64,000 bases of DNA from Escherichia phage inny, in sequence record MN850601.1. One strand, 5' to 3'. The translations under genes and the position numbers were made by a program. Each line of letters starts with the position of its first letter. Position 1 is the first letter of the stretch. The notes below the pieces were generated by a model. It searched no databases. It saw only the letters and a list, made by a program, of their open reading frames with translations, and had not been told where the DNA came from. Of this stretch, positions 1 through 45,265 are shown piece after piece.

Positions 1-80
1 GAACTTCAATAAGAGTAGTAAGTAAGGTATAAAGAGTATATAGTTAGTTATAGAGTTAGTAACATTACATATACTCTTTC

Positions 81-95
81 CATGTATAACATGGA
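81..95. promoter_or_regulatory. perfect palindrome CCATGT-ATA-ACATGG upstream of first ORF; possible operator-like site
   Basis: 6-bp inverted repeat with 3-nt spacer read directly in sequence; function unknown. Confidence 0.15.
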
Positions 96-219
96 ATATT
101 CTCTACCTCGCTATCGCTCGGTATATAAGATTAGGGTAGCATGTTTTTTACGAAAAGTAAAACTGTTTATACCGATTGATAGCAGGTTTTTAATAGATTC
201 TATCTATGAGGAGTAGAAA

Positions 220-39209: not shown

Positions 39210-39578
39210 CTAATTAACGTCAGCACTATGATTGTTGAGAGTATAGGATACTCCATCGCCCAAGTCAACATGAATCTCAACTCCTAACTGTCTTTCTAAT
39301 GGTAAACGTTTTGAGAATTGATAATTACAAAGTTTGCAATCTAAGTCAAGCAACTCATGTTTGCTTAAACCTGGGATGATAACTTTGCTTCCCACTGTCC
39401 ACTCAATACCTTCAAAGTTATCTCTTCTTTTCAAAATGTCAAGTAAGAAGATGATTTGTTGCCATTCCGTAGACAAGTCTTCTTCATAGAACGCAGAACA
39501 AAAAGTTTTATCATCGTAGAAAGCATACATTATGCCTCCATCTACTGTTTCACTTCTAACGTAACGTGTGACCCTCAT
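39210..39578 (-). CDS. hypothetical protein (122 aa), first gene of the - strand block
   Basis: ORF track; GGAGG RBS upstream on - strand. Confidence 0.45.
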   Translation of the reverse strand: MRVTRYVRSETVDGGIMYAFYDDKTFCSAFYEEDLSTEWQQIIFLLDILKRRDNFEGIEWTVGSKVIIPGLSKHELLDLDCKLCNYQFSKRLPLERQLGVEIHVDLGDGVSYTLNNHSADVN

Positions 39579-39709
39579 TATTCCCTCCTGTATAGCTCTG
39601 TAACGAGCTAATGGCCTTTAAGATATGCAATCACCTTACCTCACAGTAAAACTCGTTACAATCGTTTTTAGGAGGTTTAGGTTGTACTTAAAAATAATCT
39701 AAAAAGGTG

Positions 39710-39738
39710 TTGACAAACGCAAAAAAGTATGCTACCCT
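39710..39738 (+). promoter_or_regulatory. promoter-like element (TTGACA-N17-TACCCT) in divergent intergenic region
   Basis: Good -35 with weak -10; no ORF follows for about 260 nt. Confidence 0.25.
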
Positions 39739-39885
39739 AACCCCCGAAAAACGCCGAGCGCAGCGAGGGGGTGTTATCTAATCTTGTGATACATGATCTA
39801 ACAGACAACTGAGTAGTCTACATATAGCACTATGTTATGTCTATAATACTAACATACATACTCTATACTAACAATAGATTCTTTA

Positions 39886-39926
39886 TTAATTTTATTATTA
39901 ATTAAATAATAAATTAAATAATAAAT
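39886..39926. repeat. AT-rich tandem repeat (TTAAATAATAAA x2 plus related TTATTA units)
   Basis: Direct 12-mer duplication read in sequence immediately upstream of promoter at 39932; UP-element-like. Confidence 0.5.
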
Positions 39927-39931
39927 ATCTA

Positions 39932-39960
39932 TTGACTTTAGATCTATCTGTATGTAGAGT
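39932..39960 (+). promoter_or_regulatory. sigma70-like promoter (TTGACT-N17-TAGAGT)
   Basis: Consensus-like hexamers 40 nt upstream of gene at 40000. Confidence 0.5.
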
Positions 39961-39999
39961 AGAGAACATAAAGTCCTAACTCAACTAAGGAGATAAACA

Positions 40000-40893
40000 A
40001 TGAAAGTTAGTATTCTACATGGTGTTGACTGTTATGTTACTGATGTAGACGTTAAAGTCTTTACATTCTCTGGTGGAGAACAACATGTTCAACTAGACAC
40101 GAATCTATCAGGTTTCAATCATGCTACAGACAGAATCTTACTCTCTTTAGAAGTAAGATCTGCTAAAGACTTGATGACTTTGGTTATGACTAAGAATGCA
40201 TTGGACAATATGCTATATCATAAACCATATTGTGTTGATTTACTCATGTTGTATGTGCCGTATGCACGACAAGACAGAGTGTGTGAGCCTGGGGAAGCAT
40301 TCGGAGTTAAAGCCTTTGCTTCTATAATTAATTCATTAAATTTCTCACGTGTTATCGTTGCTGATCCACATAGTGATGTTACTCCGGCAGTGTTTGACAG
40401 ACTCTGTGTAATACCTCAAGAAGAGATTGCTTACGAAACTTTAAAGTGGAAGTTACGTATGGAGAATTTTGCTCTTGTTAGTCCTGATGGTGGTGCTCTT
40501 AAGAAAATATTTAAATTATCTAAGAAAATGTCTTTAGATGTGTTCTGTGCAGAGAAGGTTAGAGATACTGCAACAGGTGCTATTGTTCGTACAGACATTT
40601 CTGTACAGGATTTCAATAAGCGTAACCTGATGATCGTAGATGATATCTGTGACGGCGGTAGAACTTTTATTGAATTGGCTAAAGTGCTACGTGCTCGTAA
40701 CGCAGGTAAGATTGAGTTATATGTTACACACGGTATCTTTTCTAAAGGTCTTAAAGAGTTAAGTGAGCACTTTGACTGCATTCATTCTCTTAATGTGTGG
40801 GAAGATAACATCCAAGAAGATTCCGGTGTTCTTGTTAAGAATCAGTCAGATTTGCAACAACAAATTGTATCTCCATACGTGTGGAATTTTTAA
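40000..40893 (+). CDS. ribose-phosphate pyrophosphokinase family protein (Prs-like; candidate ADP-ribose pyrophosphokinase of an NAD+ reconstitution pair)
   Basis: PRPP-synthetase-like motifs VADPHSD and MIVDDICDGGRTF; 297 aa; AGGAGA RBS. Confidence 0.8.
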   Translation: MKVSILHGVDCYVTDVDVKVFTFSGGEQHVQLDTNLSGFNHATDRILLSLEVRSAKDLMTLVMTKNALDNMLYHKPYCVDLLMLYVPYARQDRVCEPGEAFGVKAFASIINSLNFSRVIVADPHSDVTPAVFDRLCVIPQEEIAYETLKWKLRMENFALVSPDGGALKKIFKLSKKMSLDVFCAEKVRDTATGAIVRTDISVQDFNKRNLMIVDDICDGGRTFIELAKVLRARNAGKIELYVTHGIFSKGLKELSEHFDCIHSLNVWEDNIQEDSGVLVKNQSDLQQQIVSPYVWNF

Positions 40894-40903
40894 ATAATAA
40901 GTG

Positions 40904-40932
40904 TTGACAATAGGGAGTATGCTTAGTAAGAT
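40904..40932 (+). promoter_or_regulatory. sigma70-like promoter (GTGTTGACA-N17-TAAGAT)
   Basis: Consensus -35 with -10-like TAAGAT upstream of 40965. Confidence 0.5.
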
Positions 40933-43445: not shown

Positions 43446-43521
43446 GGTTCCATAGCTCACTGACGAGAGCGCACACCTCATAAGTGTCGAGGGCAGGGAT
43501 TGTAACCCTGGGGAACCACCA
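43446..43521 (+). tRNA. tRNA-like gene, anticodon CAT (Met or Ile2), non-canonical T-loop ATTGTAA
   Basis: Hand fold: acceptor GGTTCC/GGAACC, D-arm GCTC...GAGC, anticodon loop CTCATAA, T-stem CAGGG/CCCTG, encoded ACCA end. Confidence 0.45.
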
Positions 43522-43552
43522 TTTAAAAGGAGGTGCTATGCATCTCCTATAT

Positions 43553-43638
43553 GCAAGTGTGGTGGAATTGGTGATACACATTGTGCTTAAAACGCAACGC
43601 TTAAATGATTGAGGGTTCGAATCCCTCCACTTGCACCA
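43553..43638 (+). tRNA. tRNA-Leu (anticodon TAA), type II
   Basis: Hand fold: acceptor GCAAGTG/CACTTGC, anticodon loop CTTAAAA, long variable arm, T-arm GAGGG-TTCGAAT-CCCTC, encoded CCA. Confidence 0.75.
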
Positions 43639-43640
43639 AC

Positions 43641-43746
43641 GCCTAGTAGGGTATTTGGTAATTCCGAGGCCATCAAAGCCTGAAAAATATGTTAGACCGT
43701 TTTGTCTAACTAAATACGAAATATGGTTCGATTCCATAACTAGGCT
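43641..43746 (+). tRNA. atypical long tRNA-like gene (106 nt); possible anticodon TCA (opal-reading) - uncertain
   Basis: Perfect acceptor GCCTAGT/ACTAGGC and T-arm TATGG-TTCGATT-CCATA; candidate anticodon loop CATCAAA; 7-bp hairpin in extended variable region; no encoded CCA. Confidence 0.3.
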
Positions 43747-43781
43747 CCCGATTTAAATAGTAATTTTTTAATAAAAATATC

Positions 43782-43810
43782 TTGACATTTACTTAGTTTT
43801 TTGTTATAGT
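43782..43810 (+). promoter_or_regulatory. sigma70-like promoter (TTGACA-N17-TATAGT)
   Basis: Near-consensus; transcript would start right at tRNA-like gene at 43822. Confidence 0.55.
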
Positions 43811-43821
43811 CATTATGAAAA

Positions 43822-43903
43822 CGGGGTGTATCTCACCTGACTTCTAATCAGGCGTTAACCGAGTAATTGGAGTATGCAGGTTCGAATCCTGTCACCCCGG
43901 CCA
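43822..43903 (+). tRNA. tRNA-Arg-like (anticodon TCT) with non-canonical architecture (no D-arm, 23-nt insert before T-arm)
   Basis: Perfect acceptor CGGGGTG/CACCCCG, anticodon arm CCTGA-CTTCTAA-TCAGG, T-arm GCAGG-TTCGAAT-CCTGT, encoded CCA; only 7 nt between acceptor and anticodon stem. Confidence 0.4.
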
Positions 43904-43920
43904 AAAAGTTTTAAAAACTA

Positions 43921-43949
43921 CTTGACAAGCAAGATAGTTTTATGTTAGA
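43921..43949 (+). promoter_or_regulatory. sigma70-like promoter (TTGACA-N17-TTAGAT)
   Basis: Consensus -35; upstream of tRNA-Ser. Confidence 0.45.
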
Positions 43950-43965
43950 TTTAAAGTATGGTAAC

Positions 43966-44055
43966 AGGAAGGTAGGGCGCAGCGGTGCGCAACCAGGTTT
44001 GAACCCTGGCCCATTGTAGCGATACGGTGATGGTTCGACTCCATTATCTTCCTCC
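43966..44055 (+). tRNA. tRNA-Ser (anticodon TGA), type II
   Basis: Hand fold: acceptor GGAAGGT/ATCTTCC, anticodon arm CCAGG-TTTGAAC-CCTGG, long variable arm, T-loop TTCGACT, encoded CCA. Confidence 0.65.
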
Positions 44056-44236
44056 AAATTCGCTTAGGAGCTTTATGAATTATAAAACTATTGGACAGAT
44101 TGTTACCGGAGTTAAGATTGTAAATAATAAAGTTGTTTATGAGTATTCTAATCTTCAACAATCTGAAGATGGTAAGAATATTCGTATGGTAAAAGCAGAA
44201 CAAAAAGATTCCGGTTGTTTTGAATAATTAAGAACG

Positions 44237-44321
44237 GTAGATTGGTGAAATGGTAGCCACAACAGTTTGCTAAACTGTCGTCGGAAACGGCGTGTAGGTT
44301 CAAGTCCTACATCTACCGCCA
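44237..44321 (+). tRNA. tRNA-Ser (anticodon GCT), type II
   Basis: Hand fold: acceptor GGTAGAT/ATCTACC, anticodon arm ACAGT-TTGCTAA-ACTGT, variable hairpin CGTCG-GAAA-CGGCG, T-arm GTAGG-TTCAAGT-CCTAC, CCA. Confidence 0.7.
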
Positions 44322-44491
44322 AGTTATCTTTAATGTAGCTTGTTGCTCTTAGTTGCTTGGTGTAACTTTTTGGAAGGATGGCTGCAACCATCTTACTTTA
44401 ATAGAGTAAACTTTCGGCAGATGGCCCCCACCATCTTACCGATACCTCATAGTTAGTGGTGCGAACACTGGCTATTTTAAAGATAATTTAT
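44322..44491 (+). other. unassigned structured spacer inside tRNA array (two GATGG-loop-CCATCTTAC hairpins)
   Basis: Repeated motif CCATCTTAC and hairpins resembling the 3' end of adjacent tRNA-Ser; no complete cloverleaf found by hand. Confidence 0.3.
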
Positions 44492-44567
44492 ACATCGTTA
44501 GCTTAGTTGGTAGAGCAAGGGGCTTTTAACTCCAAGGTCGAAGGTTCGAATCCTTCACGATGTACCA
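44492..44567 (+). tRNA. tRNA-Lys (anticodon TTT)
   Basis: Hand fold: acceptor ACATCGT/ACGATGT, D-arm GCTT-AGTTGGTA-GAGC, anticodon loop CTTTTAA, T-arm GAAGG-TTCGAAT-CCTTC, CCA. Confidence 0.7.
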
Positions 44568-44572
44568 AACAC

Positions 44573-44659
44573 GTAGGTATCGCATAGCGGCAATTGCTGG
44601 AGACTGTAAATCTCCTGCCCTTCGGGGCTTCGTTGGTTCGAGTCCAACTACCTGCACCA
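44573..44659 (+). tRNA. tRNA-Tyr (anticodon GTA), type II
   Basis: Hand fold: acceptor GTAGGTA/TACCTGC, anticodon arm GGAGA-CTGTAAA-TCTCC, variable hairpin, T-arm GTTGG-TTCGAGT-CCAAC, CCA. Confidence 0.7.
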
Positions 44660-44666
44660 AATTAAA

Positions 44667-44751
44667 GATGGATTGGCCTAGTGGTTGGGCGACGGACTGT
44701 TAATCCGTGAACGAAAGTTCTAGCAAGGTTCAAATCCTTGATCCATCGCCA
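44667..44751 (+). tRNA. tRNA with Asn-type anticodon arm (GTT) but long 15-nt variable arm
   Basis: Hand fold: acceptor GATGGAT/ATCCATC, anticodon arm ACGGA-CTGTTAA-TCCGT, variable hairpin GAAC-GAAA-GTTC, T-arm CAAGG-TTCAAAT-CCTTG, CCA. Confidence 0.6.
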
Positions 44752-44830
44752 AATAGTGCTTGTAGAGTTAATAGAAACCTCTAGAATTTTCTAGAATTGT
44801 AGGTATCAAATCCTACCAAGCAAATATTTT

Positions 44831-44905
44831 GCTCCTATCGTATAACGGCTATTACGGTTGCCTTGTAAGCAACTTATCAGGGTTCGAGTCCTTGTGGGAG
44901 CACCA
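44831..44905 (+). tRNA. tRNA-Thr (anticodon TGT)
   Basis: Hand fold: acceptor GCTCCTA/TGGGAGC, anticodon arm GTTGC-CTTGTAA-GCAAC, T-arm CAGGG-TTCGAGT-CCTTG, CCA. Confidence 0.7.
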
Positions 44906-44927
44906 ATTTAACTCTAAAGGAGTGTAT

Positions 44928-45251
44928 GTGACAGAAAAAGAGTTAGAGAAATATTTTAATATCAATGTTTTCGATGGTTTTGATGATATTGAAGATGTTG
45001 AAAGATATTATGAAGTAGAGTTAGATAAGGATAACATTGTAATTCTTTCTGCCACTTATGATTGTGCATATTATGAAGGCGAATCTCACGTTTATTTCTA
45101 TGATATGAAAACATCTTTGTTTTATGAAGTACACGCATATCATTGTTCTTGTTATGGCTTAGAAGGTCAGTGGGAACCTGAAGAAATAGGTGATTTGAGC
45201 TTTACGGTTGCATATCTAAACAGACGTGGTGCATCTACTATTTTAAAATAA
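44928..45251 (+). CDS. hypothetical protein embedded in tRNA array (about 107 aa)
   Basis: ORF track 44829-45251 trimmed to GTG after AAGGAG RBS to avoid overlap with tRNA-Thr; Cys/His/Tyr-rich. Confidence 0.45.
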   Translation: MTEKELEKYFNINVFDGFDDIEDVERYYEVELDKDNIVILSATYDCAYYEGESHVYFYDMKTSLFYEVHAYHCSCYGLEGQWEPEEIGDLSFTVAYLNRRGASTILK

Positions 45252-45265
45252 ATATTAAAAGCCTC

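Follow-up and report, generated by a model that had tools for sequence, protein, structure and literature searches.

The region analysed here is an intergenic gap of 420 nucleotides (nt) in a 64,000-nt stretch of Escherichia phage inny (record MN850601.1), the whole of which is called the window below. The window is closest to the phi92-like coliphages (Justusliebigvirus, Stephanstirmvirinae), with 99.6% megablast identity to AV123 and ESCO32 and 97.7% to phi92. Within the gap, a promoter without a conserved gene directly behind it, P+1, is followed by a small hairpin with tandem G·A mismatches, and the two together make up a strongly conserved and previously undescribed cassette. As a first-pass annotation of the window had proposed, the gap is a divergent control region: it is flanked by a minus-strand homologue of phi92 gp106A, which opens a leftward block of genes, and by the plus-strand prs, which opens a rightward block in the order prs, nadV, 15 tRNA genes. 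The locus is made up of the following elements.

39579-39999, 420 nt: intergenic gap between the minus-strand gp106A homologue and the plus-strand prs
39210..39578, minus strand: gp106A homologue (122 amino acids), opening the leftward block, from the open reading frame (ORF) list and the phi92 annotation
39583..39589, minus strand: Shine-Dalgarno sequence AGGAGGG of the gp106A homologue, read from the sequence; a ribosome-binding site is annotated at the equivalent place in phi92
39700..39738, plus strand: orphan promoter P+1, with TAAAAA (39700-39705), -35 TTGACA (39710-39715), a 17-nt spacer, TG (39730-39731) and -10 TACCCT (39733-39738)
39741..39771, plus strand: GC-rich outer palindrome, CCCCC(G) at 39741-39746 and GGGGG at 39767-39771, enclosing the hairpin core
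39754..39768, plus strand: hairpin core CCGAGCGCAGCGAGG (15 nt), CC-GA-GC-[GCA]-GC-GA-GG, made of two C-G pairs, tandem G·A, a GC clamp and a G...A loop
39794..39820: conserved block GATCTAACAGACAACTGAGTAGTCTA, identical at 25 of 27 positions in Citrobacter phage Tr1
39803-39819: imperfect palindrome AGACnACTnAGTnGTCT, within the conserved block and inside the overlap of the predicted facing transcripts
39846..39874, minus strand: putative leftward promoter P- of the gp106A block, with -35 TTGTTA (39874-39869), a 17-nt spacer, TG (39854-39853) and -10 TAGTAT (39851-39846)
39873-39865, minus strand: second TGTTAGTAT, at P-, read from the sequence
39880..39931: almost pure A+T tract between the back-to-back P- and prs promoters, with AT palindromes and a 12-nt repeat
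39900-39926: tandem repeat, 2.2 exact copies of an AT-only 12-mer
39932..39960, plus strand: proximal prs promoter (Pprs), TTGACT-N17-TAGAGT, from the promoter scan
40000..40893, plus strand: prs (ribose-phosphate pyrophosphokinase), opening the rightward block, from the ORF list and the phi92 annotation

An orphan promoter of the host type

The TTGACA-N17-TACCCT element noticed in the first-pass annotation is indeed present, and the TG in front of its -10 hexamer, at -15/-14, which had been overlooked, makes P+1 an extended -10 promoter. Its sequence shows what is expected of sigma-70 promoters of this class (a -35 close to TTGACA, a spacing of 16-18 nt and TGn-TAnnnT), a TAAAAA tract ends four bases before the -35, and transcription would start at approximately 39745-39747. 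The number of promoter-like matches in the gap is not above chance (12, versus 8.4 +/- 3.1 in shuffled sequences), so that the case for P+1 rests on its conservation in distant relatives. The spacing between -35 and -10 is 17-18 nt in nearly all the relatives compared, the copy on contig L155 being without a recognisable -35. The remote lineages have TACCCT, TAAGCT, TACCTT, TATCCT or TATAAT as their -10, with the 17-18 nt spacing and the hairpin kept; since the hexamer varies as TAnnnT at a fixed spacing, it behaves as a genuine -10.

The layout of P+1, TAAAAA-N4-TTGACA ... TGn-TAnnnT, is common to about nine other promoter-like sites in the plus-strand block. Sites of this type are found between genes and tRNAs at 40904-40932, 43112, 43782, 43922, 45266, 46638, 50087 and 62276, all on the plus strand and with an AT-rich spacer. 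The plus-strand sites that share the layout are probably the early promoters of the phage, and their common design places P+1 in the phage's own family of host-type early promoters.

The description of P+1 as a promoter without a gene holds for the sequence directly behind it, where the only ORFs are of 22-25 amino acids and none is shared with Tr1; as they are not conserved, these small ORFs were rejected as genes. It does not hold further on, since prs lies about 255 nt downstream without a convincing terminator before it. Several records carry small hypothetical proteins annotated over the cassette (KMB37, locus L002, 1626-1814; Klebsiella phage phi1_175008, loci L005, 1386-1643, and L130, 1177-1296; AV123, locus L166, 21346-21471), and the Tr1 record has one directly beside it (L003, 2578-2667). 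None of these annotated ORFs is conserved between phages, and they are probably spurious.

A hairpin with tandem G·A mismatches

The GC-rich palindromic stretch of the first-pass annotation was also borne out, as CCCCC(G) pairs with GGGGG. This outer stem, whose 5' arm is at or upstream of the predicted P+1 start, is specific to the copy of the cassette found at this place in phi92-like phages (hereafter copy 1) and is not kept in Tr1 or in the Klebsiella phages. The pattern of the core that it encloses has a chance expectation of 0.05 per window, and its mismatches are purine-purine on the promoter-sense strand only. Across the copies, the loops are mostly of 3-6 nt and nearly always run from G to A (GCA, GAA, GATA, GGGA, GAAA, GTAA, GTCTA or longer). 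The outer stems differ in sequence while their pairing is kept: 14 of 28 distinct variants extend for at least three pairs (G·U allowed), against some 5% expected, and the pairs are often G·U on the sense strand. When folded as RNA, 11 of 14 sequences are stabler in the sense than in the antisense orientation (sums of -110.8 and -75.1 kcal/mol, respectively).

At the gathering level, Rfam matches only tRNAs in the whole window and in 20 related loci. A permissive scan relates copy 1 to the GA-cis RNA motif RF02987 (21.3 bits, E = 0.053), a motif without an assigned function. The 3' hairpin of this model, Cc-GA-gc-GaAa-gc-GA-gG, shows the tandem-GA architecture of the phage core and differs little from it in sequence. 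Nevertheless, the match fails to reach the gathering score (34.7 bits), its 5' half covers the promoter itself, and seven other cassette-bearing loci gave no match at E <= 10. As copy 1 falls below the gathering score and the other copies are unmatched, the element is not a member of GA-cis.

Conservation and distribution of the cassette

Outside the genus, a DNA-level match to the gap was found in Citrobacter phage Tr1 only (70% identity over 39703-39915), and a search with the Prs protein added three Klebsiella phages (63-64% identity). In alignments with these phages the best-conserved stretch of the gap is TATGCTACCCTAA followed, after a few bases, by GCCGAGCG(A/C)AGCGAGG. Across Stephanstirmvirinae, conservation of the -10 region of P+1 and of the hairpin core is about 90%, against an identity of 31% (the gp106A homologue and its Tr1 counterpart) and 62-64% (Prs) between the flanking proteins. 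The orphan promoter and the core show almost no variation in Tr1, the Klebsiella phages and Phapecoctavirus. Judging from these comparisons, P+1 and the hairpin are under strong selection.

The complete genome of AV123 contains three copies of the cassette, at 138190 on the plus strand and at 98622 and 71451 on the minus strand. Copy 1 is in sense with prs and faces P-, copy 2 is antisense inside an early operon, and copy 3 lies between genes of the same strand. We read the latter as an mRNA leader; in relatives, cassettes of the copy-3 type precede additional hairpins, a Shine-Dalgarno sequence and an ATG. Copy 2 is also present in the window, between the plus-strand homologues of gp023 and gp024, where it points against both.

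78..161, minus strand: cassette copy 2, with -35 TTTACT (161-156), TG (141-140), -10 TACCCT (138-133) and hairpin CCGAGCGATAGCGAGG (121-106)
96-78, minus strand: second hairpin of copy 2, TTCCATG-N5-CATGGAA, from the sequence

Orthologues of this antisense copy occur in a Klebsiella phage and in Phapecoctavirus, phAPEC8 having a sense copy, and the consensus of the copy-2 type retains two hairpins, whose loops vary and which show one compensatory change. On the cassette strand, pairs of ACTAAC with CTCTATA between them are found 46-80 nt past both window copies (39848 and 39867, plus strand; 60 and 48, minus strand). Since ACTAAC occurs only 39 times on both strands of the 64 kb, this clustering is unlikely by chance; in copy 1 the motifs coincide with the putative P-.

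Pattern scans also detected the cassette in unrelated viral contigs, some of them with another -10 (TAAGCT, TACCTT, TATCCT, TATAAT), and it is present in metagenomes too. The variation of the -10 was surveyed with a reverse-strand pattern, which replaced a TTGAC-N-hairpin scan of viral contigs that had been set aside because, among the matches listed, most were due to chance. The 16-mer GCCGAGCGNAGCGAGG has at least 120 matches in viral contigs, a total close to chance, and it is clearly non-random only in multi-copy contigs and in a low-GC subset, where 37 of 43 matches have an additional closing pair. The 403-kb IMG/VR contig 3300014204_000106 (L016, L020, L065, L079, L084) carries many tandem-GA hairpins, GCCGAGCGNAGCGAGGC, which are the tip of a longer repeated hairpin, AGCTTCTTTC ... 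GAAAGAAGCT; the same is seen in L117, which may be from this contig too. A giant-virus contig (L022) has three copies of a tandem-GA hairpin, each followed by GAAAAAATTTTTT.

In 0.5-Mb contigs of Buttiauxella and Scandinavium metagenome-assembled genomes the cassette directly follows an integrase gene. In both cases (Buttiauxella DAMBYU010000003.1, L174, 2150-4183; Scandinavium, L170) this is a tyrosine-integrase gene of a chromosomal island. Past the cassette lie about 750 nt that contain two CTGTTCCTGT repeats and no convincing ORF, and beyond them small genes, one of which encodes an endonuclease VII homologue; genes for Hcp and a chemoreceptor flank the island. A 62-nt consensus of the cassette found no match in E. 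coli genomes, this query being too short to be informative.

A putative facing leftward promoter

P+1 faces P-, which is situated 100-130 nt to its right. P- would drive the gp106A block from a start near 39839, and its layout is kept as TTGTAA-N17-TAGTAT in Tr1 and, with a different sequence, as TTGATT-N17-TATAGT in the Klebsiella phages. The predicted rightward and leftward starts overlap by 93 nt in the window, 94 nt in Tr1 and 98 nt in a Klebsiella phage. The P+1 RNA would then be antisense to the first ~93 nt of the leftward leader, and the two promoters may affect each other through mutual interference or through pairing of their RNAs. Similar facing promoters with 5' transcripts complementary over about 90 nt are known from P22 (Pant/Psar), coliphage 186 (pR/pL) and ColE1 (RNA I/RNA II). 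The likeness has its limits: the phi92-like phage is virulent and has no lysis-lysogeny switch, its rightward RNA probably continues into genes, and its transcripts are predicted only. The block GATCTAACAGACAACTGAGTAGTCTA, not conserved in the Klebsiella phages, may function as an operator or at the RNA level; its palindrome was considered as a repeated operator and rejected, as it has a single copy in the window.

One reading of this arrangement, which the first-pass annotation had also put forward, is a locus for a small regulatory RNA. The cassette would produce a stand-alone RNA, tens of nt to about 100 nt long, with the hairpin at its 5' end and antisense to the gp106A leader, or in copy 2 to the early gp023 mRNA, after the model of lambda OOP, P22 sar and ColE1 RNA I. 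The persistence of facing promoters with a 93-98 nt overlap in three lineages would suit such an RNA, as would the antisense position of copy 2 relative to its neighbours in phi92-like, Klebsiella and Phapecoctavirus phages and the two hairpins of copy-2-type elements, with their variable loops and compensatory change. In Klebsiella-type copy 3 a strong terminator-like hairpin follows at +49 to +93, and the weak match to GA-cis points in the same direction. Yet that match is too weak for the gathering threshold and is limited to copy 1, the sequence past the hairpin differs among the three copies, without a common RNA body, and neither copy 1 nor copy 2 is followed by a conserved terminator. 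In the gap, the scan found no terminator-like site on the plus strand, where the sole candidate is the weak CCCCC...GGGGG stem plus TGTTATCT, with its 5' arm at or before the predicted start; the minus strand has a 5-bp stem plus TTTTT, and neither stem is kept in Tr1 or in the Klebsiella phages. An antisense-strand terminator (GGGTAGCAT followed by T6) was likewise rejected, being absent from Tr1 and from copy 1 of the Klebsiella phages. Of the small-RNA proposal, the antisense relationship to the leftward leader is plausible, but the lack of a conserved terminator after copy 1 speaks against a self-contained transcript, and we consider a stand-alone small RNA unlikely.

The A+T tract and the question of a terminus

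The tandem repeats and the promoter of the Prs-like gene reported by the first-pass annotation are both there, and the position of the latter is kept in Tr1 (TTGACC-N17-TAGTAT) and in the Klebsiella phages. The repeat is a different matter. phi92 lacks one 12-nt unit, and most close relatives give matches shortened by 12 nt, from which it follows that the repeat is dispensable; Tr1 and the Klebsiella phages have an AT-rich tract at the same place, but not a similar repeat. Several direct repeats kept in relatives, as an iteron-type origin would have, are not found. Given this, and the position of the tract between back-to-back promoters, the proposal that these are origin repeats is not supported, and the tract is read instead as an UP-element-like upstream sequence shared by P- and Pprs.

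The first-pass annotation had also suggested a packaging site. The AT-rich palindromes and the 12-nt repeat are real, and the GenBank record of phage ALITA opens inside the A+T tract, which might suggest a genome terminus, a pac or cos site, or an iteron origin on the repeats. However, phi92 has annotated direct terminal repeats of 343 bp at its physical ends (1-343 of the record, where the gap locus is at 47.8-48.2 kb), and because these are some 40 kb away, the region is not a terminus or packaging site. The other records listed open elsewhere, for which reason the break in ALITA is probably an assembly break at the AT palindrome or a choice of the submitter and not a physical end; about 33 nt of the tract (window ~39873-39907) seem to be missing between the end and the start of that record (PP359570.1). 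With a single repeat unit in phi92 and most relatives and nothing similar in Tr1 or the Klebsiella phages, iterons fare no better, and this whole group of explanations is very improbable.

The cumulative GC skew of AV123 does have its global minimum at 137-138 kb, which is the gap locus, so that the inflection anticipated there was found. A second minimum at ~73 kb corresponds to the other divergent junction, the maxima at ~36 and ~102 kb to the two convergent ones, and the skew does not change at copy 2 of the cassette. Since the extrema fall at all four strand switches, the skew is explained by gene orientation: it reports the coding strand and is no independent evidence for an origin.

Likeness to the primosome site of ColE1 plasmids

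A string search of the literature indicated that GAGCGCAGCGAG is common in plasmid sequences. More than 2000 ColE1-type plasmids contain the 14-mer CCGAGCGCAGCGAG of the phage hairpin, on the strand that leading-strand synthesis displaces and about 140 nt past the origin. In ColE1, this region is described as the ssiA or n'-pas primosome site, which is exposed by the extension of polymerase I (PMC3167613). The two hairpins have in common the identical 14-nt core, the tandem G·A, the GC clamp and a GNA loop whose middle base is free, being C or T in plasmids while the phages have C, A or longer loops. Both lie on the sense strand of the upstream transcript (RNA II in ColE1, the P+1 RNA in the phage), and the phage 14-mer is on the strand equivalent to the single-stranded one of the plasmid. 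The plasmid hairpin is reportedly the functional part of ssiA. In contrast to the phage hairpin, which lies 6-17 nt from the -10, that of the plasmid lies about 140 nt past the switch from RNA to DNA and some 700 nt from the promoter; the remainder of the plasmid site (~70-80 nt, including AAGCGG) is absent from the phage, and the flanks are unrelated.

These similarities open the possibility of an R-loop origin, in which the P+1 RNA would stay hybridised to its template while the displaced non-template strand folds into a G·A/GNA DNA hairpin that serves as a primosome signal; the AT tract 110-160 nt downstream would melt easily, and three copies would mean three origins. Besides the identity with the plasmid 14-mer, such an origin is favoured by a p15A-type variant in which only the middle loop base is altered (GCGTAGC). 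The GNA and GNNA loops match the very stable DNA mini-hairpins d(GCGNAGC) reportedly described by Hirao et al., into which the triloops GCA and GAA and the GAUA loop of the phages would fit. Certain outer stems start upstream of the normal start site, copy 2 and the L155 copy drive no gene, and AT-rich tracts follow copy 1 in three lineages, copy 2 in Klebsiella phages and the L151 copy. A promoter followed, some 110 nt downstream, by about 50 nt of nearly pure A+T also recalls oriF and oriG of T4 and the primary origin of T7; in the phage gap, by contrast, the tract sits exactly between back-to-back promoters and varies in repeat number.

Several observations are difficult to reconcile with such an origin. 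The skew minimum at the gap locus would fit it, but as the skew tracks the coding strand at all four junctions it adds nothing, and there is no change of skew at copy 2. The back-to-back promoters on either side account for the AT tract, whose repeat is polymorphic. Cassettes of the copy-3 type lead straight into a structured leader, a Shine-Dalgarno sequence and a gene, the frequent G·U pairs of the outer stems favour RNA, and in ColE1 the transcript does not begin at the hairpin. Reading through the sequence, without a systematic search, revealed neither DnaA boxes nor conserved iterons. Literature searches returned no transcriptome or origin-mapping study for Stephanstirmvirinae. A role of the region as a replication origin is unproven, and the R-loop explanation seems doubtful. 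Still more tentative is its generalisation, according to which the cassette would be an unrecognised and widespread single-strand initiation signal activated by transcription, its mini-hairpin on the displaced strand recruiting the primosome or a phage helicase-primase.

Function of the cassette

The reading that we favour, with a probability of roughly one half, is that the gap is a compound early-promoter region in which a conserved cassette provides transcripts with a very stable 5' hairpin. It would contain three sigma-70 promoters of the host kind: one for the gp106A block (P-), Pprs, and the orphan rightward P+1. In the P+1 cassette the extended -10 is followed within 6-17 nt by the hairpin, and the transcript would start at, or a few bases before, the hairpin base. 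As no convincing terminator lies downstream, the P+1 transcript may cross the AT tract and read through into prs-nadV-tRNA, for which P+1 would act as a distal promoter. The hairpin itself would most likely act in RNA, as a 5'-terminal stem-loop stabilising or marking the transcripts of this class of promoters; an RNA-level role is favoured by the varied downstream contexts, which comprise a gene leader, an antisense position and a facing promoter, by the variation of the -10 and the frequent G·U pairs of the outer stems.

As a small conserved hairpin with a G...A (GNRA-like) loop that lies just past an early promoter, and at several operon starts, the element recalls promoter-proximal RNA hairpins with an effect on the transcribing polymerase or on the transcript: the lambda nut sites (boxA-boxB), HK022 put, and 5' stabiliser stem-loops such as that of the ompA leader. 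Nevertheless, boxB has no tandem G·A pairs, and TGCTACCCTAA, although it resembles TGCTCTTTAA of boxA, occupies the -10 position and so would not be transcribed. Readings of TGCTACCCTAA as boxA-like or sigma-S-like were both considered and dropped.

A number of points weigh against an early-promoter region with an RNA-level hairpin. The sequence elements of the cassette and their conservation, copy number and orientation are directly observed; the start sites and the activity of P+1 and P- are deduced from consensus and conservation, and P-, with 8 of 12 matches plus the TG, is below the scan threshold of 9 of 12. TGCTACCCTAA is near-invariant within Stephanstirmvirinae, which exceeds what a -10 element needs. 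The outer stem begins only 3-4 nt past the -10 in four remote lineages, and a stem that lies upstream of the normal start fits a DNA-level hairpin better than an RNA one; the triloops GCA and GAA and the GAUA loop are not those that an RNA hairpin favours. Together with the identity to the ColE1 14-mer and the copies without a gene (copy 2 and that of contig L155), these early stems and GNA/GNNA loops are what would favour a DNA hairpin.

Other features of the region

No Pfam family was found for the gp106A homologue. Its leftward leader holds two long-range inverted repeats (39584-39607 with 39652-39675, and 39663-39682 with 39734-39753). In the minus-strand RNA, the first would bring an upstream CCUCC together with the gp106A-homologue Shine-Dalgarno sequence, and the second would pair the CCUCC segment instead with the antisense of the P+1 -10 region. 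This looks like an alternative-pairing switch; the repeats are confined to the phi92-like genus and their fold z-scores are modest (-2.1 and -2.6).

The tRNA array downstream of prs and nadV (43446-46196, plus strand) comprises 15 genes according to ARAGORN and 14 according to Rfam, and the two sets of calls partly disagree, an Rfam match at 43822-43900 being without an ARAGORN counterpart. The phi92 record has a 151-nt 'hypothetical tRNA' annotated within the nadV coding sequence (49736-49886 of phi92; L001, 5546-5696), at the equivalent of which neither ARAGORN nor Rfam finds a tRNA in the window.

Four records labelled as Campylobacter jejuni phages, MG065639, MG065645, MG065656 and MG065689 ('Campylobacter phage' A150, A145, C3 and A110a), share 95.6% identity with E. 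coli phi92-like phages in the intergenic region and 98.7% in Prs, and their host label looks doubtful.

Implications

The cassette bears on the regulation and replication of phi92-like phages and other large coliphages related to them, members of which serve in phage-therapy collections: it is short and non-coding, is conserved to a much higher degree than the proteins next to it, has three copies in each genome, and recurs in unrelated phages and in integrative elements. Whichever way it acts, it calls for caution in annotating small ORFs such as those placed over it in several GenBank records. An action in RNA would make it a portable 5' module, affecting stability or modifying the polymerase, that could be useful in phage engineering. 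An action in DNA would connect the origins of phages with the primosome site of ColE1; were the more tentative idea of a widespread initiation signal true, ColE1 plasmids would have an origin module in common with phi92-like phages, with other phage lineages and with some integrative elements.

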